Source: Spirochaetia bacterium (GTDB taxonomy: Bacteria > Spirochaetota > Spirochaetia > SZUA-6 > Bin103). Taken from it: a stretch of DNA of 64,000 bases. Both the position numbers and the translations under genes were made by a program. The stretch covers positions 2,368,001-2,432,000 of the forward strand of contig CBDBDQ010000005.1 in NCBI GenBank assembly GCA_965203905.1, read 5' to 3'. Below are positions 3,518-56,001 of this stretch, piece after piece; within the stretch, counting starts at the first letter, position 1; each line of letters opens with the position of its first letter. Under the pieces are notes generated by a model that had not been told where the DNA came from, did not search any database, and worked only from the letters and a program-made list of their open reading frames with translations.

Positions 3518-5347
3518 ATGGTGAGACGACTGGCGCTGGCCGGGTTGTTGTCGCTGACGGTGGCGCTCGGTGGCTGCGACGTGGTGAACAACATCCTGGG
3601 CCGCTCCGGGGGCCAGACGGCCGGTGCGGGGGGAGGCTTCGGTGGTGGTGGCTTCGGCGGCGGCTTCGGCGGGCAGGCCGCCGCGCTTCCCGTGGTGACC
3701 GCGGACGTGGTGCGGCAAACGGTATCCAGCTTTCTCGTGGCCACCACGACCCTGAGCGCGGAGCGATCGCTCGACGTGGTGGCACGCGCCGGCGGCGAGG
3801 TGGTCGAGGTGCTGGTGGAAGAGGGCGACGCCGTGCGCGAGGGGCAGCTGCTGGCACAGTTGGACCCGAGTGACGCGCGGCTGGCGCTGGCCGAGGCGCA
3901 GGCGCACTATGACAACCTCCAGCGCGAGTACAACCGCACCGTCGAGCTGGCCGAGCACGGCGGGGTCACCGATCAGGAGCTGGAGAACCAGCGCTACCAG
4001 GTCGAGTTGCGCACGATCGCCCTGGAGCGTTCCCGGCAGCAACTGACCGATACCGAGATCCGTTCGCCGATCACCGGCATCGTCGGCGCGCGCTCCGTGG
4101 AGGCGGGCGCGACCATTTCGGCCAACACCCGCGTGTTCCACGTGCTCGATCCCGATCCGCTGCTGGCGGTGATCCACATCCCGGACGCCAGTCGGCAGAG
4201 CCTGCGCGCGGGGCAGAGAGTGCAGATTCAGGCCGCCGGCGGAGTCCAGGCGACCGGGGTGATCGATCGCATCAGTCCGGTGGTCGATGCGGAGTCGGGC
4301 ACGGTAAAGGTCACGGTGGAGCTGGATGCGGCCGGCACGGACGCCGGCATGCTGGTGCCCGGATCGTTCGTCACGGTCCAGGTGCCGACCGAGACCCGCC
4401 CCGATGCCGTGGTGGTGCCCAAGCGTGCGATCCTCCTGGAGCGGGACCAGAGCATCGTCTACCGCGTGCAGGAGGGGGTGGCAGTGCGCACGCCGGTGGC
4501 GGTGGGGCTGTCGGCGCAGGACCTGGTGGAGATCACCAGCGGCCTGAGCGTCGGCGACGCGGTGGTGACGGTCGGACACGAGTCGTTGCGCGACGGCGCT
4601 CCGGTGCGCGCTGCCGGCGAGCCGCTGCCGGAGTCGGCCACGGCCGGCGCTCCGGCCGGCGGGCCGGGCGGCGGCGGCGGCGGTTTCGATCTGGCGCAGC
4701 TACCGGCGGAACGCCGCGACGCGTTGTTCGAGCGGTTGCTCCAGAATGCCGAGTTCAAGAAGGCATACGACGCCAAGCTGCAGGAAGACCCGGCACTGGA
4801 GAGGGACGAGGACAAGAAGCTGGCGTTCTTCCAGGAGCAGATCGCCGCGATGGGCGGTATGCGGGCGATATTCGCCGGCGGCGCCGGAGGCGGAGCGCGC
4901 CAGGGAGCTGCGGGCGCTGCTGGCGGCGGGCCGGGCGGTGGCGCCGCGGCTGGCGCCGGTGGTCAAGCTGGCGGCGGTACGCAGGGTGGCGGCGCCGACC
5001 AGGCGGCTGCCGGTGCAGCGGCCGGGCAGGCCGCTGCGGGCGCGGGGGGCGGCGGAGCGCGCGCCGGCGGTGGCGGCGGCCAGGGCGGATTCGCCGGTGG
5101 TGGCCCGGGTGGCGGCGGCTTCAGCCTGGCGAACCTGCCCGAGGAGCGCCGCGAGAGGTTGATAGCGCGCCTGCTGCAGAACGAGGAAGTGAAGAAGGCC
5201 TACGACGCGAAACTGAAGGAAGATCCGGCGCTGGAGAACGACGAGCCACGGCGGCTGCAGTTCCTGCAGGAGCAGCTCCAGGCGATCGGTGGCCCGCGCG
5301 CGCTGTTCGGCGGCGGCGGTGGCGGCGGCGGTGGCTTCGGCGGCTGA
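3518..5347 (+). CDS. RND periplasmic adaptor (MFP) lipoprotein with Gly-rich, internally duplicated C-terminal extension
   Basis: AGGAGG then ATG 3518; lipobox LGGC; VEEGDAVREGQLLAQLD and IRSPITGIV lipoyl half-motifs. Confidence 0.9.
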   Translation: MVRRLALAGLLSLTVALGGCDVVNNILGRSGGQTAGAGGGFGGGGFGGGFGGQAAALPVVTADVVRQTVSSFLVATTTLSAERSLDVVARAGGEVVEVLVEEGDAVREGQLLAQLDPSDARLALAEAQAHYDNLQREYNRTVELAEHGGVTDQELENQRYQVELRTIALERSRQQLTDTEIRSPITGIVGARSVEAGATISANTRVFHVLDPDPLLAVIHIPDASRQSLRAGQRVQIQAAGGVQATGVIDRISPVVDAESGTVKVTVELDAAGTDAGMLVPGSFVTVQVPTETRPDAVVVPKRAILLERDQSIVYRVQEGVAVRTPVAVGLSAQDLVEITSGLSVGDAVVTVGHESLRDGAPVRAAGEPLPESATAGAPAGGPGGGGGGFDLAQLPAERRDALFERLLQNAEFKKAYDAKLQEDPALERDEDKKLAFFQEQIAAMGGMRAIFAGGAGGGARQGAAGAAGGGPGGGAAAGAGGQAGGGTQGGGADQAAAGAAAGQAAAGAGGGGARAGGGGGQGGFAGGGPGGGGFSLANLPEERRERLIARLLQNEEVKKAYDAKLKEDPALENDEPRRLQFLQEQLQAIGGPRALFGGGGGGGGGFGG

Positions 5348-5366
5348 CGCCCGTCCGGCCTCCGCG

Positions 5367-6092
5367 GTGGAGGAGGCAGCCGATCCGGATGCCGCCGCGG
5401 CCCGCGTCCTGGTGGTAGAGGATGACGCTGCCATCGCGGAGCTGATCGAACTGTATCTGCACAAGGAGGGGCTGGAGAGCACCTGCGTCGCTTCGGCCGA
5501 GGAGGCGGAGAGCACCCTGCGCCGGATGGTTTGCCACTTGGTGATCCTGGACATCAACCTGCCCGGTCGCGACGGCTTTCAGTTCCTGACGCAGTTTCGC
5601 GCGCGCCACTCTACCCCGGTGATCATCGTGTCGGCGCGCGACTCCGACGAGGACAAGGTGCTCGGCCTCGGGGTCGGTGCGGACGACTTCGTCACCAAGC
5701 CGTTTTCGCCGCGCGTGCTGTTGGCGCGAGTGCGGACCAACCTCCGCTACCTGCAGCGCGGGCCGGCGCCATCGGTACGGGCGGTTCGCTTCGGTGACTA
5801 CCTCATCCACCTGAACGAGTACACCGTCACCCGCGACGGCAGCCGCGTGACGCTGGCTCCCAAGGAGTTCGATCTGCTTGCCTACCTGGTGAGCAACGCC
5901 GGGCGCGCCTTCAGGCCGCAGGAGCTGTACGCGCGCGTGTGGGGCAACCGCTTCGGCGACCTGTCCACGGTCACCGTGCACGTGCAGCGGTTGCGCAAGA
6001 AGCTGCACCGTCCGGGAACGGCACCGCTGATCGAGACCGTCCCACGGGTCGGCTACCGCGCCTCTTCCGCCGTCGTGAGCTTCGAGACGTGA
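5367..6092 (+). CDS. OmpR/PhoB-family response regulator (start uncertain)
   Basis: VLVVEDD, LVILDINLPG, GADDFVTKPF, winged-helix TVTVHVQRLRKKL...IETV. Confidence 0.92.
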   Translation: MEEAADPDAAAARVLVVEDDAAIAELIELYLHKEGLESTCVASAEEAESTLRRMVCHLVILDINLPGRDGFQFLTQFRARHSTPVIIVSARDSDEDKVLGLGVGADDFVTKPFSPRVLLARVRTNLRYLQRGPAPSVRAVRFGDYLIHLNEYTVTRDGSRVTLAPKEFDLLAYLVSNAGRAFRPQELYARVWGNRFGDLSTVTVHVQRLRKKLHRPGTAPLIETVPRVGYRASSAVVSFET

Positions 6093-48734: not shown

Positions 48735-50417
48735 ATGACGCGGGCCGGCCATCTGCGGCGGCTGCAGGAGGAACGCTTCGACCTGCTGGTGATCGGCGGC
48801 GGGGCGACCGGCTGCGGCAGCGCCCTCGACGCCGCCACCCGTGGACTGCGCGTGGCGCTGGTGGAGCGCGGCGACTTCGCCGGCGGCACCAGCAGCCGCA
48901 GCACCAAGCTGGTGCACGGCGGGGTGCGCTACCTGGAGCAGGCGGTCAGGCGCATCGACCGGTCTCAGTTCCGGCTGGTGCGGGAGGCGCTGCGGGAGCG
49001 TGCGGCGCTGCTGGAGCTGGCCCCGCACCTGGTGCACGAGCTGGCGATCTTCGTGCCCCTCTACCAGTTGCGCCAGCAACCCTACTACCGCATCGGCCTC
49101 AACCTGTACGACCGCCTGGCGGGCCGCTACGCGCTGCGCCGTTCCGAGTTCGTGCCGCGCGAGCAGGCGCACGAGCGGTTCCCCTACCTGCGCGAGCAGG
49201 TACGTGGCCAGGGACCGCCACGCCACCTGCGCGGCGGAGTGATTTACTACGACGCCCAGTTCGACGACGCGCGCATGAACCTGGCGCTGGCCCTGACCGC
49301 GGCCCATCACGGCGCGGCGCTGGCCAACTACGTGGCCGTCGAGGGACTGGTGAAGGACGCCGCCGGCCGGCTCACGGGCGCCATTGTGCGCGACCGCCTC
49401 GACGGTGCCGAGTGGGAGCTGCGGGCGCGGGTGGTGCTGAACGCGGCCGGGCCCTACGTGGACGAGCTGCGCCGCCTGGACGATCCCGGCGGCACCCCGC
49501 TGCTGCGCGTCAGCGCGGGGTCCCACCTGGTGCTTGGAGAGCGCTTTCCCGCCCCCGACACCGGCTTCCTGATTCCCCGTACGGAGGACGGCCGGGTGAT
49601 TTTCGTGCTGCCCTGGCACGGGCAGCTCCTGGCGGGCACCACGGAGGTGGACGCGCAGGTGACCGACGAGCCGCTGCCGGCGCGGCAGGAGGTGAGCTAC
49701 CTGCTGACGCACCTGCGCAACTACCTGAACCTGCCGGCGGGGCCCGGCGACGTGATGGCGGCATGGTCGGGGCTGCGCCCGCTGATCGCCGCCCCACCAC
49801 GGCGCGTGGCCGGCGGCCGCCGTCAGCGCCGGGACACCGCGGCACTGACCCGCGACCACTTCCTGAGCACCAGCCGCAGCGGGCTGATCACCGTCGCCGG
49901 CGGCAAATGGACGACTTACCGGGTGATGGCCGTGCACGCCGTGAACCGCGTCGTGGAGGCGGGCGGCCTGGCGCCGCGGCGCACGTCGCAGACCCGCAGC
50001 ACGCCGTTGCTCGGCGCGGTCGGCTACCGCCCGGACGCCGCCGGCCTGCAGCGCCGGTACCACCTGGCCGCCGACGTCGCCGGTCACCTCGACCGGGCAT
50101 TCGGCGACCGCGCCCACCTGGTGGCGCAGCTGGCGGGCGCCGGGTTCGGCTCCCGGCTGGCGCCGCGCCATCCCTACCTGGAGGCCGAGGTGGTGTACGC
50201 GGCGCGCCACGAGGCGGCCTGCACCGTGGACGACGTGCTGGCTCGGCGCACCCGGCTGGCGTTCGTCGACAACGTGGCGGCCCTGGCCAGCGTGCCGCGG
50301 GTGGCGCAGCTGCTGGCCGCGGAGCTGGGTTGGAGCGCCGCCGAGCGCCGGCGTCACGCGGACGCCGCCAGGGCCCGCCTGGAGACTGCACAGGCGATCG
50401 TCGACGGCGTCGAGTAG
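48735..50417 (+). CDS. glpD: FAD-dependent glycerol-3-phosphate dehydrogenase
   Basis: IGGGATG, GTSSRSTKLVHGGVRYLE, GGKWTTYR, RRTRL. Confidence 0.95.
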   Translation: MTRAGHLRRLQEERFDLLVIGGGATGCGSALDAATRGLRVALVERGDFAGGTSSRSTKLVHGGVRYLEQAVRRIDRSQFRLVREALRERAALLELAPHLVHELAIFVPLYQLRQQPYYRIGLNLYDRLAGRYALRRSEFVPREQAHERFPYLREQVRGQGPPRHLRGGVIYYDAQFDDARMNLALALTAAHHGAALANYVAVEGLVKDAAGRLTGAIVRDRLDGAEWELRARVVLNAAGPYVDELRRLDDPGGTPLLRVSAGSHLVLGERFPAPDTGFLIPRTEDGRVIFVLPWHGQLLAGTTEVDAQVTDEPLPARQEVSYLLTHLRNYLNLPAGPGDVMAAWSGLRPLIAAPPRRVAGGRRQRRDTAALTRDHFLSTSRSGLITVAGGKWTTYRVMAVHAVNRVVEAGGLAPRRTSQTRSTPLLGAVGYRPDAAGLQRRYHLAADVAGHLDRAFGDRAHLVAQLAGAGFGSRLAPRHPYLEAEVVYAARHEAACTVDDVLARRTRLAFVDNVAALASVPRVAQLLAAELGWSAAERRRHADAARARLETAQAIVDGVE

Positions 50418-50455
50418 TGCCTTTCGCTGCGCCAATACGCGTAATCGGCAATACT

Positions 50456-51859
50456 TCAGTACCGTATATCGACAAACATAGCCATTCGTCCCGGACAGGG
50501 ATACCCGTATTTGTCTTTGTGAGGATTCAGACGGGTAGTGCGCTTCTTACGCCTGAAGCGTTTGCCACAATAAGTACACTCATAGATGTGATGTGGGCCG
50601 CTTCCTGATCGCGCTGCGCGTGTTCGGCGGCGCTGCCGCGTCGGTGCTGCCGCTCGAGCCGCGGCGGGCGGAACTGCGATCGGGTTCCGCGGACTCAACT
50701 CCACGACGTAACGCGGGACAAAGCTCCGTCCAGTAATCTTTGCGCCTTCAATACGGTCAATGCGGTAGCTCCGGTGCTCTCCATCAGAGTTTCGGATTGC
50801 GTGCAGGACGATATTTCCATCGCGGGTGCGTCGTAGAGAATACGGTTCAATCCGTCGAACTGAGCTCTGGTAGCGTAAGTCGACGCACACATGGTTGGCG
50901 GCCGCAAAGCGAATGATCTCCAGGAATGACCGTGCGGCCGTGGCCACCGGCAGCCGTAGTGTACGCTCTCTTAGGACGGTTTCTCCCGCCGCTATCTCGT
51001 AGACTTCCGGTTCGCTAGGGGCAACGCCAGTGTGCAGCCATGCAAAGAAATCAGGGAGCTCGTTCCAGAACGATTCGACCGGCAGTAGAGCCTGAAGCTG
51101 ATGACCCAGCATGGATCCCAAGAACCTTCAAGATCGCCTTTACGTCTCTCTAGTTCCGTAAGCGTTGGAATAAGGATGTCGCGATGCCTACACTTTTGGT
51201 GTAGTACATCGTGCAGTACAGCGGGCTGCGGGCGTGCCTCGGTATTCCGATAGAGATTGACCACATCGTAGAGATCGCGCGGCCGTGCACGGTCACCCAA
51301 TGCGCGGACCTTTGGCCGAAGGCTTCCTCATAGGCGTAGCAACGGACTCTGATGCCCTCTTCGGGCGCATCGCTGTAGTCGTGAAAGATGACTCGTTGCA
51401 GCGGTGGGAGTACAAGAATTTCGTCAGCCGTAAGATCCAGTTTGATACGCGGGAGACCACCTGACCGCGGAGCGATCGGCCCTTGATAGCTGAGTTGCCC
51501 TGACAGGAGAACGTGCCACGCGTGTTTTCGAAGATTTCGAAGTCCTGCAAGTCTGCCGGAATCTCGATGCCAGTATGATCGTATATCCATTCTCCGATTT
51601 CGCGGAATACGGGACGAAGGAACTCCTGATCGACGTGGGAAGGTTCGGTGAGTGTAAAATCAAGATCTTCGGAGAACCGATAGGTTTCAAAATAGCATTT
51701 CTTGAGACATGTCCCGCCCTTGAAGATCCAGGTATCAGTAAGTGCGGGATGCTGATGGATGCCGGCAAGAACCCAGCCAAGTACATAGTCCTTTTCGATG
51801 ATCTGAGGGCGTAACCCAAGCGTATTCGCTGCACTGAGGATTTCGCCGCGGCCAATCAT
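50456..51859 (-). pseudogene. AbiEii nucleotidyltransferase toxin fused to WYL domain and Zn finger; three frameshifts
   Basis: IEKDY, FKGGT, RFSEDLDF / IKLD / KVRAL, RPRDLYD / RRIEPYSL, RSYRIDRI (WYL), CTYC...H...C; frame breaks near 51497, 51315 and 51117. Confidence 0.85.
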
Positions 51860-51870
51860 CGAGAAGCCAC

Positions 51871-52656
51871 CTACGTCCAGCTCTCAGGTACCAGAAGGCG
51901 CCAACGGGAAACAAGACGACCGCAGGTGAGCGCTCGATCAAGCTTGGCGTTACCTTGGGTCAGATGCGCCCGGCACGCCTGGACAAGTCTAGCAGTGTTT
52001 GCTCTCCGTTCTGCCAGGAATCCCAGACGCTTGAATACGGCGCCATTGCCGAGCATCCCTGCATAATCTATTAGCTTGGCATCATCTCTGTCGTTGCGGC
52101 TGAAGTAGCTCACAACGCAGTCAGATACGTGCTGGATACCGGCTCCGACTTCCGGATCGTCGAGCATGTCGATGATGGTACGGTGAACGTCGGAAATCGC
52201 GATTCGAGTTCTTCCACGCCAGACGTTCTTGGTGCCGAAGATATTGGTCTCTTGAACGTGTTTCAGCGTGAAGTGTGCTCCGTGGCGTAGCAGCCTCTTC
52301 GCACGAACGGCCCGCGCCGTCATTACGACGATGTCACGAAAGATCTGGTCCGTCAGGCTCCAGTGTTCCGCTGCAGCGCGTCCGCCGATGTAGGCAGGTC
52401 CGAAGAGAACCGGCACCAGCACCCAGGGGTCATCGAGAACCAATTCGCTGGCCAGCGAATCAAGGCCGACGGGCGCGTAGCAGCCCGGTCCAACGCGTCG
52501 CAGCCAGCCCTGCCGAAACCACCGGGAGAGTAGCTTCGATGCGTCGGAACGGCTCACGTCCAGTGCTCGTTCGGCATCATCGATTTGGATGATATCGCCG
52601 GCTGCCCGAACAACGGCAGCCAGTCTAAGGCGACCCTTCGGTATGGGGGGGCTCAT
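51871..52656 (-). CDS. AbiEi-family type IV antitoxin / transcriptional regulator
   Basis: N-terminal wHTH LSRWFRQGWLRRVGPGCY; YIGGRAAAEHWSLTDQ, ISDVHRTIIDML, KRLGFL. Confidence 0.85.
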   Translation of the reverse strand: MSPPIPKGRLRLAAVVRAAGDIIQIDDAERALDVSRSDASKLLSRWFRQGWLRRVGPGCYAPVGLDSLASELVLDDPWVLVPVLFGPAYIGGRAAAEHWSLTDQIFRDIVVMTARAVRAKRLLRHGAHFTLKHVQETNIFGTKNVWRGRTRIAISDVHRTIIDMLDDPEVGAGIQHVSDCVVSYFSRNDRDDAKLIDYAGMLGNGAVFKRLGFLAERRANTARLVQACRAHLTQGNAKLDRALTCGRLVSRWRLLVPESWT

Positions 52657-52754
52657 GATTCAGTATCGGGACTCCAATAATTCGCTGTTTTCAGGAAGTT
52701 TAGCAAGCATAATATACACTATCGAGACCTCGTAAGGTACTTAAGTAAAGCATT

Positions 52755-52775
52755 AATTCGCATTTTTTGCGAATT
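52755..52775. promoter_or_regulatory. Inverted repeat upstream of abiEi (candidate operator)
   Basis: AATTCGCA-N5-TGCGAATT perfect 8-bp arms in AT-rich leader. Confidence 0.5.
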
Positions 52776-52894
52776 CGAGCAGCGAAGATATCTAATCTCG
52801 AAGACGAACCGAGGTGCCGCCGGAGACGCGCGGGTTCAGACTTGGGTCATCGTCACCGGGACTGGAGCGGAGATCGCTCCGCTGGTTGTTTGGG

Positions 52895-54283
52895 CTATAC
52901 GACCGCGGATGGCAGAGTGCGCTCGATCTCGTCGATGCGGTAGCCGAAGCCGCTCCCGGTCACGGACTTCAGGTCGACGTGTCCGTCACGCCGGCGGTAG
53001 AGGCCGGGATGGACCCGCGCTTCGGCGGCTGAGGCGGCCGGGTAGAACTGCATGGCGTTGGTCTCCACGCCCATGATGGTGCCGGCGTGTGCCGCCAGTT
53101 GCAGGTGCGGGACCTGCGCCAGCATCGGATTGGTCAGGTCCTGCACCATCAGGGTCATGCCGTGGTGGCGCGCCCAGCACAGGCTGAGGATGGCGCCGGT
53201 CTGCGTCTTGCAGGTCTTCAGGGCCACCCCGCTCCAACCGAGCGAGCGGCCGAGGCGTACCAGCGTCCAGTCGTGGGCGCTCTCATCCATGAACAACGGC
53301 TTGCGTGCCGCCACCGAGCGCACGTCGATCTGATGCTGCTCCAGGTCGTAGGGGAACGGCTGCTCGACGTAGAGGATCGCGGCGTAGGTGCGCGGCTCGT
53401 GGTCGCGCAGTCGGTCCAGTATCCGGTTCACGTACTCGGGCTCGGTCACCGTACAGTTGAAGTCGGCGGACAGCCACAGCACCGGATGCCGTGCCGCGAT
53501 GGCACCTACCGCCGCCAGGCGCCGGTAGTCCCACTCGGCGTCGTCGCCGCGCAGCTTCACCTTGAGCGCCTGCAGTCCGTCGCTGCGGATCCAGTCCTCC
53601 AGCAACACCGGGTAGCCGTCGTCCGGCTCGTCCCCGGTGAGCTCGTCCGGCGAGAGGGGGTCGAGGCCCCCGACCAGGTGCCATGCCATCAGCCGGCGGC
53701 GCGGCGGCACCAGGTAGTCGCGGGGGTAGCGGCCGGCAAAGGCGGGGTCGCCCAGGAGCGCGGCCAGGTCGCTGCCCAGGTGCTCGGGGCCGTAGGTGTC
53801 GTAGGTGGGACAATCCAGCAGCTTGCCGTAGGCGTCATGGGTAGCCAGATCGAACGCCGAGGCACATACCAGGGCGGCGAGCCAGGGGATCGCGGCGGCG
53901 CCCGGCCGGGTGCGGTTGGCCGCCGCCAGCAGCTCCGGCAGGCGCCGCTCGACGAAGCGCTGGCCGATCTCCAGCGGATGACCCGGCTCCGCCGCATCCG
54001 GCCAGGCCCGCGCGATCGCCTCGCTGAGACCGCACAGCGCCTGCAGCCGTTCTGCGTAAGGGATGCCGCTCGGCCAGACCCATTGCACGCTCAGCGGCGT
54101 CTCGCCCCAGCCCACGACGGTTTCGGACCCGTCTCCGGCGCGGCTCAACTCGACGCTGGCGCGCGCGCAGATGACCGACGTGGTGACCTCCGGACCGAAC
54201 TTCAGCGGCACGCGGGTGGTGACCGGCAGATAGTACAGGTGGGTGGCACCTACCGCCGCGCTGCACGAATGGTGAGTGGGCAT
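52895..54283 (-). CDS. Mandelate racemase/muconate lactonizing (enolase superfamily) protein
   Basis: LKVKL, SADFN, YVEQP, MDES, ALKTCK. Confidence 0.88.
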   Translation of the reverse strand: MPTHHSCSAAVGATHLYYLPVTTRVPLKFGPEVTTSVICARASVELSRAGDGSETVVGWGETPLSVQWVWPSGIPYAERLQALCGLSEAIARAWPDAAEPGHPLEIGQRFVERRLPELLAAANRTRPGAAAIPWLAALVCASAFDLATHDAYGKLLDCPTYDTYGPEHLGSDLAALLGDPAFAGRYPRDYLVPPRRRLMAWHLVGGLDPLSPDELTGDEPDDGYPVLLEDWIRSDGLQALKVKLRGDDAEWDYRRLAAVGAIAARHPVLWLSADFNCTVTEPEYVNRILDRLRDHEPRTYAAILYVEQPFPYDLEQHQIDVRSVAARKPLFMDESAHDWTLVRLGRSLGWSGVALKTCKTQTGAILSLCWARHHGMTLMVQDLTNPMLAQVPHLQLAAHAGTIMGVETNAMQFYPAASAAEARVHPGLYRRRDGHVDLKSVTGSGFGYRIDEIERTLPSAVV

Positions 54284-54397
54284 CGCGCTCGGAGTATAGG
54301 GGGCCAACGGCCGGCGGACAACGAGCGGCCGGCGCGGCGAAGCCGGTGGGCGGTACCCCGGCGGCACTCCCGGCACCGGGCAGTGCACCCGCGGGCG

Positions 54398-54528
54398 AAA
54401 AAAAGGCCCCTGGGTAAAGGAGGTGAAACCCCAGGGGCCAATGGATGGTAGTCGGCGTAGCTTGCGGGTGTGCTCAGTTCCCTCAAGCTTTGCAAGCCAA
54501 ACGCTTGCAGACAGGAGGTTTCACCGAC
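54398..54528 (-). ncRNA. Putative sRNA A (about 130 nt): multibranch 5' domain + terminator with anti-SD loop
   Basis: GUCGGUG/CGCCGAC basal stem, UGCAAGC/GCUUGCA and AGCUUG..CAAGCU hairpins, then 10-bp GGCCCCUGGG stem, loop GUUUCACCUCCUUUA, U7. Confidence 0.6.
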
Positions 54529-54535
54529 GTTATAA

Positions 54536-54563
54536 TCGTCGGCTTCCGGCACTCACAGCTTTA
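54536..54563 (-). promoter_or_regulatory. Sigma28 (FliA/WhiG)-like promoter of sRNA A
   Basis: TAAA-N16-GCCGACGA on minus strand, 7 nt before the predicted 5' stem. Confidence 0.5.
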
Positions 54564-54632
54564 ATCATTTTCGAAGAAATCGGAATTTTTTTGACTCCTG
54601 TCGAGCGAGATTCCTGTCGAGAGCGCGGGCAT

Positions 54633-54740
54633 AAAAAAAGGCCCCTGGGTAAAGGAGGTAAAACCCCAGGGGCCAGTGGATGGCCATCAGAACATCTGGG
54701 GGTAAAATCACACGCGCGTGTTCGGAATCCCCCAGTGTCT
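54633..54740 (-). ncRNA. Putative sRNA B (about 108 nt) with the same 3' module
   Basis: 5' stem CUGGGGG/CCCCCAG; 3' 51 nt are 49/51 identical to sRNA A, loop GUUUUACCUCCUUUA, U7. Confidence 0.6.
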
Positions 54741-54745
54741 ATAAG

Positions 54746-54775
54746 TAACAACAACAGTCGAGTTGGAAGGTTACA
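54746..54775 (-). promoter_or_regulatory. ECF-sigma-like promoter of sRNA B
   Basis: TGTAAC followed 16-19 nt later by TGTT(A) on minus strand. Confidence 0.35.
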
Positions 54776-54809
54776 TGGGGTACCAAAAAAATGTGAAAGG
54801 AGACCACGC

Positions 54810-55466
54810 CTACCGCGCCGCACGGTAGCGCTCCAGATGGCGCCGCACCGCGCTGCGCTGCTCGGCGGCCACCGAGGCCAGTTCCACCACTTCCTCGATC
54901 GTGATCAGTGCGGCGGTGGCAAACCCGAACTCCGCCTGCAGCTCGGCCAGGGCGCTGGCCGACCCGCTGCCGCGCTCCATGCGATCGACCGCAATCAGCA
55001 GGCCGACGATCCGCGCCGCCGATCGGCTGCGCAGCAGCTCCACCGCTTCCCGCTTGGCGCCGCCATCGGTAACTACGTCGTCTACAATCAATACGCGGTC
55101 GTCGGCTTCCGGTTCCCGCCCCACCAGGGTCCCCGCCTCGCCGTGGGTCTTGGCCTCCTTGCGGTTGAAGGTGTAGCTCAGCGGGCGTCCCAGCATCCGC
55201 GAGGCGCTGATGGCGGTCGCGACGGCCAGCGGGATCGCCTTGTACGCGGGACCGAACAGGCAGCTCGGCGGGGCGCCGGCAAAGTGCTCGGCGATGGCGC
55301 CCGCGTACAGGTCCGCCAGTTGGGCGATCTGCTCCCCGTGATGGATCGCCCCCAGATTGACGAAGTAGGGCGAGGAACGCCCGCTCTTGGTGGTGAACCG
55401 GCCGAAACGCACGGCGCCGGTGTCCACCAGCAACTGCGCGAGGCGTTGCTTGTCGGGGGTGGTCAT
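54810..55466 (-). CDS. pyrE: Orotate phosphoribosyltransferase
   Basis: FTTKSGRSSPYF, LFGPAYKAIP, FNRKEAKTHGE, PRPP motif VLIVDDVVTDGG. Confidence 0.95.
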   Translation of the reverse strand: MTTPDKQRLAQLLVDTGAVRFGRFTTKSGRSSPYFVNLGAIHHGEQIAQLADLYAGAIAEHFAGAPPSCLFGPAYKAIPLAVATAISASRMLGRPLSYTFNRKEAKTHGEAGTLVGREPEADDRVLIVDDVVTDGGAKREAVELLRSRSAARIVGLLIAVDRMERGSGSASALAELQAEFGFATAALITIEEVVELASVAAEQRSAVRRHLERYRAAR

Positions 55467-55515
55467 GGCCCCCGCAGTGTAGCGGATCGCGCGCCGGTTC
55501 GGGTACGTTGCCCCC

Positions 55516-56001
55516 ATGGCACGCAAGCGGATCTACCTGGCGAGCCCGTACGGATTCTCGAAGCAGCAGAAGGCGTTGCTGCTGCCGCCCATAGTGGCGC
55601 GGCTGGAGGCGCTGGGCGCCGAGGTGTGGGAGCCGTTCGCGCGCAACAACTGGGACATTCCGCGCCCGGGATGGGCCTACCGCGTCGCTCAACGCGACCT
55701 CGGCGACGTGCTCACCTGTGACGCCATCTTCGCGGTCGTGAACGGCACGCCGCCGGATGAAGGCGTGATGGTGGAGCTGGGCGTGGCCATTGCGCGGCGG
55801 ATTCCCACGTTCCTGTTCCGTGACGACCTGCGCCGCTGCACCGACAGCGAACACTATCCGCTCAACCTGATGCTGTTCGCGGGGCTGCCAGAGCAGGGTT
55901 GGAAGGACTACTACTACACCGACCTGGACCATCTGGCACGGTCCGACAAGGCCCTGGCTCCCTGGCTGGCGGCCGGGGACACGGGCGCGGCTGCGGATTG
56001 A
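55516..56001 (+). CDS. Nucleoside 2-deoxyribosyltransferase family protein
   Basis: IYLASPYGF, PPDEGVMVELGVA, NLML. Confidence 0.88.
   Translation: MARKRIYLASPYGFSKQQKALLLPPIVARLEALGAEVWEPFARNNWDIPRPGWAYRVAQRDLGDVLTCDAIFAVVNGTPPDEGVMVELGVAIARRIPTFLFRDDLRRCTDSEHYPLNLMLFAGLPEQGWKDYYYTDLDHLARSDKALAPWLAAGDTGAAAD

Follow-up and report, generated by a model that had tools for sequence, protein, structure and literature searches.

Introduction

The AbiE systems of Lactococcus lactis and Streptococcus agalactiae (DUF1814/COG5340) are two-gene operons in which the antitoxin gene abiEi precedes the toxin gene abiEii, and their AbiEi is described as a winged-helix protein with inverted-repeat operators. 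The S. agalactiae AbiEi is reported to bind inverted repeats in its own promoter (PMC3985639). Here we analyze a locus of this kind from a Spirochaetia bacterium, within a stretch of 64,000 nucleotides (contig CBDBDQ010000005.1, positions 2,368,001 to 2,432,000 of the forward strand; hereafter the window, to which all coordinates refer). It holds an intact abiEi and, directly downstream, a toxin gene in four frames whose joined product is an AbiEii nucleotidyltransferase (NTase) fused to a WYL domain and a zinc-finger-like motif.

A 2026 preprint (10.64898/2026.01.19.700257) reports that AbiEii is bound by AbiEi, which induces the toxin to auto-phosphorylate on T65, and that the S. agalactiae AbiE failed to protect against any of 32 coliphages. 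Its authors reclassify AbiE as type VII, so that the label "type IV", under which a preliminary description drawn from the sequence alone had placed our locus, is under revision, while the assignment to AbiE itself stands.

Both halves of the toxin have known relatives. MenT3/TglT and MenT4, toxins of the MenAT systems of Mycobacterium tuberculosis, resemble the NTase half, and CapW, DriD and PafBC are reported to sense single-stranded DNA (ssDNA) through WYL domains. The fusion of the two has been listed before: Makarova, Anantharaman, Grishin, Koonin and Aravind (2014, PMC4012209) give WYL with an "AbiGII-like nucleotidyltransferase (DUF1814)" in one line, and propose for it ligand sensing that regulates an abortive-infection system. 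Our locus shares with that entry the domain fusion and the proposed role; the finger, the strict linkage to abiEi, the operator and the pattern of decay described below come from the present analysis and go beyond what that line states.

Results

An intact abiEi stands beside a toxin gene in four frames

The toxin gene (50456-51859, minus strand) runs from a start codon at 51859 to a stop codon at 50456, a span of 1404 bases that lacks three single bases and gives 468 codons plus the stop once these are added. The first of its four overlapping frames (51293-51859) matches positions 3-65 of the Pfam AbiEii profile (PF08843) at 54.9 bits, the second (51150-51590) positions 96-143 at 19.7 bits and the third (50992-51300) positions 154-206 at 23.4 bits; at a cut-off of 22.5 bits, the first and third frames lie above it and the second below. 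The last frame (50456-51121) contains a WYL domain (50738-50923, residues 67-128 of the frame) that scores 27.9 bits against Pfam PF13280 (cut-off 21.8, E = 2.4e-6) and is matched by the PADLOC WYL models as well. A basic linker follows, and behind it the translation holds the C-terminal pattern C-x2-C-x15-H-x7-C (50495-50578). Because this pattern reaches only 15.4 bits against the Pfam C2H2 models (PF00096 and relatives; cut-off 25.2), and because of the arrangement of its residues, we treat it as a C2HC finger-like motif and not as a member of the Pfam C2H2 family.

The PADLOC model for AbiEii, PDLC02317, is 396 positions long; the first frame aligns to its positions 1-138 (E = 4.6e-67) and the last to 249-395 (E = 3.1e-57). 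Since one model matches both, it already includes the WYL domain. NCBIfam holds no model for the toxin. A complete AbiE system in the PADLOC sense has both genes whole; here AbiEi is whole and AbiEii is in four pieces.

The antitoxin and repressor gene of the module, abiEi (51871-52656, minus strand), encodes 261 amino acids. Its match to Pfam AbiEi_4 (PF13338, COG5340) is borderline (25.4 bits, cut-off 25, E = 1.6e-5); that to the PADLOC model PDLC02271 covers residues 4-260 of 261 at E = 4.3e-122. With the end of its stop codon at 51871 and the toxin start at 51859, abiEi lies directly upstream. All elements of the module, the operator, abiEi and the toxin frames, lie on the minus strand.

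These results agree with the preliminary description, which had reported an intact abiEi, four overlapping frames joining into a protein of about 470 residues, and three single-base frameshifts. The motifs that it quoted are all in the translations: KGGT, RFSEDLD and RDLYD for the NTase (we find KGGT, SEDLD and RPRDLYD in the window frames), IEPYSL and SYRIDRI for WYL, and CTYC..H..C for the finger.

Intact fused homologues are widespread and paired with abiEi

A search with the last frame among proteins of 388-2000 amino acids gave 1534 matches at E ≤ 0.001 among the 8000 candidates scored, and the best 120 of these 1534, which are 393-496 amino acids long, all carry PF08843. Intact fused homologues of 465-495 amino acids are abundant and occur in many phyla. 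A library of representatives at 50% identity yielded 887 proteins at E ≤ 0.001 (482 at ≤ 1e-10, 106 at ≤ 1e-30), many of them fragments, and in contigs from one genome per species 540 of the 590 pattern hits code for a relative. The intact homologues and both profiles thus confirm the proposed fusion of AbiEii, WYL and zinc finger: homologues carry the domains in one protein and not as separate genes, and the C-terminal region matches WYL by sequence and by fold.

From the one-genome-per-species contigs, 80 loci were kept for comparison. Their hosts are Acidobacteriota, Alpha-, Beta-, Gamma- and Deltaproteobacteria, Gemmatimonadales, Nitrospiraceae, Bacteroidota, Ignavibacteriales, Elusimicrobia, Dehalococcoidia, Planctomycetes, a metagenome-assembled genome (MAG) of Gracilibacteria, and the cultured Aromatoleum toluvorans Td21 (L079). 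Full-length copies at 58-60% identity also occur on four plasmid records (three Rhizobium, one Candidatus Thiodictyon), where RefSeq names the product "nucleotidyl transferase AbiEii/AbiGii toxin family protein"; two of the four matches also overlap an annotated "type IV toxin-antitoxin system AbiEi family antitoxin". Among 50,697 phage records, no match was found at E ≤ 1e-10.

In 79 of the 80 loci the immediate upstream neighbor on the same strand is a homologue of abiEi, the exception being a locus with an N-terminally truncated toxin. Intact AbiEii-WYL homologues beside abiEi, for which the preliminary description had suggested a search, are therefore found, and the same linkage contradicts its view of the toxin as a one-component system.

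By toxin class, 48 of the 80 loci hold the intact long form with finger, 18 a short form of 394-476 amino acids without the whole finger (two of these, L033 and L093, hold a damaged finger), 10 a broken form (L059, L068 and L099 being so classed only because the BLAST alignment passed the stop codon), 3 a toxin that runs off the contig and 1 an N-terminally truncated toxin; the classes are rough in these respects. As 18 loci are classed without the whole finger, the finger appears as an optional addition to an NTase-WYL core. The short form of 394-429 amino acids ends just after WYL (L024, L025, L030, L053, L060, L063-L065, L071, L074, L083, L090, L094, L100-L102), and it is to this form that PDLC02317, with its 396 positions, corresponds. 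Two loci (L036, L052) have a split abiEi, and at least six (L023, L042, L050, L058, L092, L096) have a toxin gene interrupted by a split or a stop. Broken module genes are not rare among species-representative genomes, and some may be MAG assembly errors.

Conserved residues and predicted fold of the toxin

Residue conservation was read from an alignment of 113 homologues. The NTase residues G49, S63, E64, D65, L66, D67, R195 and D196 are invariant, and the catalytic and phospho-acceptor positions among them (G49, S63, D65, D67, R195, D196) are all present in the window frames. They correspond to G49, T65, D67, D69 and D192 reported for S. agalactiae AbiEii (here G49, S63, D65, D67 and D196), and S63 precedes D65-x-D67 by two residues as T65 precedes D67-x-D69. 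In WYL, E339, Y341, S342, L343, R344 and R364 are invariant; in the finger, the same holds for C429, C432 and H448, and at least 90% of the homologues keep C456. The tail is strongly basic, a character that the linker shares, and its R336, R337, R344, R345, R364, R367 and R370 show little or no variation. What most distinguishes this toxin from those of L. lactis and S. agalactiae is the tail itself, about 200 extra C-terminal residues comprising WYL, the basic linker and the C2HC finger; the toxin gene in the window differs further in being a pseudogene.

Fold comparisons (Foldseek against the Protein Data Bank, PDB) used a model of the intact homologue P0001, which scores 129.1 bits against Pfam AbiEii, and not the broken protein of the window. 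The AlphaFold model, built from the 113-homologue alignment, has a mean predicted local distance difference test (pLDDT) score of 84 and a predicted template modelling (pTM) score of 0.76, with the linker at 393-421 disordered. Its first 300 or so residues match MenT3/TglT (6j7p, E = 1.7e-7, TM-score 0.67 on the target) and MenT4 (6y56, E = 2.5e-7), the best structural matches to the NTase part. The MenT toxins have a phospho-acceptor serine at the same place relative to the DxD motif; they share 12-18% sequence identity with our family and have neither WYL nor finger, and tRNA modification by the present toxins is suggested by this likeness.

The WYL part of the model matches the ssDNA-bound C-domain of DriD (7tzv_A; root-mean-square deviation 2.3 over 86 columns, 24% identity) and also PafBC, CapW and BrxR. 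When PDB chains were searched by sequence with the profile of the family, MenT4 (E = 4.8e-4) and zinc fingers (E = 0.058-1) were found and no WYL chain, and for this reason the assignment of the WYL fold rests on the structure search. With CapW, BrxR, DriD and PafBC, all described as tied to phage defense or DNA damage with an ssDNA ligand, the family shares the WYL fold, the first-strand serine and an R-x-x-R-x-D-R-I motif; the conserved S342 and the R364/R367/R370 motif resemble S144 and R184 of CapW. The architecture differs. In those regulators WYL lies between a helix-turn-helix (HTH) domain and a WCX domain and controls transcription, whereas in the present family it follows an enzyme and precedes the finger, with no HTH or WCX.

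In intact members, WYL, the basic linker and the zinc finger would together bind single-stranded nucleic acid. By analogy with CapW, DriD and PafBC, the tail may be a sensor of phage- or damage-derived ssDNA that licenses the toxin; this is our preferred reading, held tentatively and placed a little short of probable. The preliminary description had likewise inferred a sensor that gates the toxin. Several points weigh against it. The arginines that flank the WYL motif of CapW and contact ssDNA (RWHVR) appear to be replaced by N350 and H354; the family lacks the WCX domain, which forms part of the ssDNA crevice in CapW; the 18 loci without a whole finger make the finger dispensable for the family; and a literature search that did not cover subscription journals found no experiments on an AbiEii-WYL fusion.

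The strongest alternative is that WYL and the finger sense no trigger and instead clamp the substrate, gripping tRNA or another RNA by its single-stranded 3' end. In the PIF1 helicase, the WYL domain binds the ssDNA on which the enzyme itself acts, and in Cas13d systems the ligand of WYL1 is ssRNA. The Sm-like WYL fold binds single strands, as in the ssDNA complexes of DriD and CapW in the PDB; the basic tail with its conserved arginines would suit this role; and with a full AbiEi partner in 79 of 80 loci, control could rest wholly on the antitoxin. A clamp fits the data equally well as a sensor gate. Against it, characterized AbiEii and MenT toxins are described as lacking such a tail and yet acting on tRNA, all Foldseek matches that show a WYL domain in complex with its ligand are sensor-regulators, and a clamp must do without its finger in the 18 short-form loci. 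We regard the clamp as possible and, on balance, unlikely.

Probable recurrent decay of the toxin gene with abiEi retained

Alignment of the frames to intact homologues and to contigs of other sequencing runs places the missing bases at 51494/5, 51310/1 and 51115/6, refining the positions first proposed (51497, 51315 and 51117). Contigs of four runs (X16, X1, X17 and X3) were compared over 50400-52900. In X16, which contains every word sampled and is the likely source run, one contig at a word depth of 10.6 shows no difference from the window across the 2501 bases compared. These are Logan contigs, built from the reads themselves; they reach 123 kb in X16, a length that argues for accurate reads. 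None of the listed runs that contain the sequence is recorded as RNA. The other three runs, from three other studies, are about 99% identical to the window (7, 11 and 25 other letters in X1, X17 and X3, respectively), and each holds one extra base behind 51115, 51310, 51494 and 52800. With the extra bases the local reading becomes SWESMLG, FGEKVRAL and CQGKLSY, in agreement with the family consensus. The fourth site lies in the promoter-distal part of the islet described below, where at 52800/52801 the window has one base fewer in a short T run (minus strand) than the three other runs.

Lesions also occur at other places in the gene, and in this sense decay of the toxin recurs. X3 has its own 5-base insertion behind 51259 and X17 a 1-base loss at 50906 (at a depth of only 3), while X1 has no further indel. 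Among relatives, the toxin gene of G006 has one extra G just after the codons for CYAYEE, the database protein P0001 being its uninterrupted form; that of G018 is broken after VVLPP and lacks the finger; and that of G001 is intact, with 482 amino acids and the finger. abiEi is free of indels in all four runs. We conclude with high confidence that the breaks are real and represent recurrent decay of the toxin with the antitoxin retained. A dead toxin with a surviving antitoxin is the usual decay route of such modules.

If the three frameshifts were instead read or consensus errors, the organism would carry an intact, working abiEii-WYL gene, and several observations count for this and against decay. 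All four indels of the window, the three breaks and the one at 52800, are one-base losses from short A/T runs, and they stand against only 7 substitutions relative to X1, a ratio that is high for natural divergence and could mean systematic read error. The 99%-identical copies in three other studies hold the base at every site; X16 may be the assembly's own data and is for that reason not independent support; and since the X1 copy is divided between two contigs at 51192/51196, no single near-identical contig carries an uninterrupted toxin frame. Errors of this kind would nevertheless have to appear in read-built X16 contigs that reproduce the window without a difference, spare glpK (497 amino acids), glpD (560), the enolase-family gene (497) and abiEi, all of which are uninterrupted, and coincide with the separate lesions of X3, X17, G006 and G018. 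We consider this explanation improbable.

The same genome contains a second remnant of the toxin family (G000:C5:130657-131112; L002 1306-1977, plus strand), a 223-amino-acid open reading frame with WYL (Pfam E = 2.8e-8) and finger that is 51% identical to the window copy. Only vestiges of the NTase lie upstream, no abiEi was seen there, and the remnant adjoins a GmrSD-type restriction gene (GmrSD_C, E = 8.8e-26).

A shared palindrome precedes abiEi

The top palindrome of the region upstream of abiEi, proposed as operator-like in the preliminary description, was found at 52776-52754 on the minus strand (GAATTCGCA-aaaaa-TGCGAATTa). Its core, ATTC-N11-GAAT, occupies 52756-52774, at −118 from the abiEi start. 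A second, weaker site, cTTC-N11-GAAT, lies on the same strand at 52680-52698 (−42 from the abiEi start, 76 bases from the first).

We searched for RTTC-N11-GAAY in 73 upstream regions, namely those of the window, of three relatives, and of the members of the 80 loci with 240 bases upstream of a near-complete abiEi. The pattern is present in 43 of the 73, compared with 1.2 on average and at most 5 over 200 shuffles, and spacers of N7-N10 or N12-N15 give only 0-3 regions; the weaker site of the window is left out of this count because its first base breaks the RTTC rule. Many related loci carry two sites, near −120 and −48 and about 73 bases apart. The pattern is common to loci across phyla, a sharing that suggests a common operator grammar for this AbiEi clade. 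The predicted palindromic operator fits a dimeric winged-helix repressor such as AbiEi. It is a 19-base element, often in two copies about 73 bases apart, compared with two adjacent 23-base repeats in S. agalactiae. A scan for sigma-70 promoters over 50300-53000 gave no site.

The operator arrangement also bears on a third role for the tail, that of a DNA-binding co-repressor through which the toxin would aid AbiEi in shutting off the operon, as in conditional cooperativity. Two sites some 73 bases apart would leave room for a larger repressing complex, and the finger begins like a C2H2 DNA-binding finger, with Pfam scores below the cut-off. We think this very improbable: in S. agalactiae, repression is reported to have been no stronger with AbiEii than with AbiEi by itself (PMC3985639), a palindromic operator is already accounted for by a dimeric winged-helix AbiEi, and the finger is again missing in 18 of 80 loci.

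The module occupies a 2.47-kb low-GC islet

The module was acquired as an islet of 2,472 bases (50421-52892). Its guanine-plus-cytosine (GC) content is 0.53-0.59, compared with 0.72-0.78 in the left flank, which together with the Pfam and PADLOC matches upholds the earlier description of an AbiE module in a lower-GC insert. On its left lies glpD (48735-50417, plus strand, 560 amino acids) and on its right an enolase-superfamily gene (52895-54388, minus strand, 497 amino acids), both identified by Pfam. The two genes are convergent, with the islet wedged between their stop codons, and they adjoin each other in all five same-genus genomes searched, with gaps of 12 (G010), 34 (G009), 102 (G001), 143 (G007) and 385 bases (G004). 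The bounds of the insert come from the alignment to G010, which covers query bases 1-1621 and resumes at 4094-5529, leaving the islet as the gap.

Neither an integrase nor a target duplication was found at the islet, no tRNA gene was found in 50000-56000, and an Rfam scan of 50300-55000 gave no family at or above the gathering score. The best candidate for terminal repeats, an 18-nucleotide pair with 83% complementarity (50423-50440 and 52769-52786), was rejected as chance because many other listed pairs score equally well. Two overlapping terminator-like hairpins lie on the plus strand at 52863-52883, compared with 1.8 expected from shuffles.

Beyond the enolase-superfamily gene, a 51-base direct repeat (54398-54448 and 54633-54683, 96% identical, copies 235 bases apart) sits in a lower-GC gap (0.58-0.59) before a gene for 238 amino acids (54810-55526). 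Each copy has a perfect 10-bp GC-rich stem followed by seven T on the minus strand, and so resembles an intrinsic terminator; no tRNA gene or Rfam family was found at the repeat.

Discussion

We judge, with good confidence, that the locus represents a decayed member of an AbiE toxin-antitoxin or abortive-infection subfamily that is widespread and already catalogued. The fusion that defines the subfamily is real but not new. The preliminary description knew of no characterization of it, and this stands insofar as our literature search, made outside subscription journals, found no experiments; the fusion itself is already in print (PMC4012209), in PADLOC (PDLC02317) and in RefSeq. The subfamily is known yet uncharacterized.

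In the window copy, the toxin is killed by three 1-base deletions and an intact orphan antitoxin/repressor remains. Although the breaks sit in short A runs, we rejected expression of the whole toxin by programmed ribosomal frameshifting, to which we give practically no weight, because it needs three separate +1 shifts, a single frame encodes the protein in the homologues, the 99%-identical copies among them, and the family has no conserved shift site. The repeated, independent loss of the toxin with abiEi kept in near-identical copies may reflect selection, in the hosts, against a hair-trigger toxin.

Intact members would work as follows. AbiEi, as in S. agalactiae, would bind the palindromic RTTC-N11-GAAY operators and repress the operon, and, by analogy with T65 of S. 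agalactiae AbiEii and S78 of MenT3, may also silence the toxin by inducing its auto-phosphorylation on S63. Once freed, the nucleotidyltransferase would, like MenT toxins, add nucleotides to the 3' ends of tRNA and halt translation. A further and doubtful step is that the tail sensor overrides the AbiEi-induced, phosphorylated "off" state and fires the toxin on phage infection or DNA damage. If true, the subfamily would be the first of the AbiE/MenT systems for which a trigger input can be identified.

The window copy itself, a dead toxin beside a surviving antitoxin, adds little. The interest lies in a large natural subfamily that joins a recognized ssDNA-sensing fold to a toxin. How AbiE/MenT-type toxins are activated during infection is still unclear, and this subfamily, with intact copies in cultured, tractable bacteria (on Rhizobium plasmids and in Aromatoleum toluvorans Td21), offers a practical starting point in the search for the trigger.

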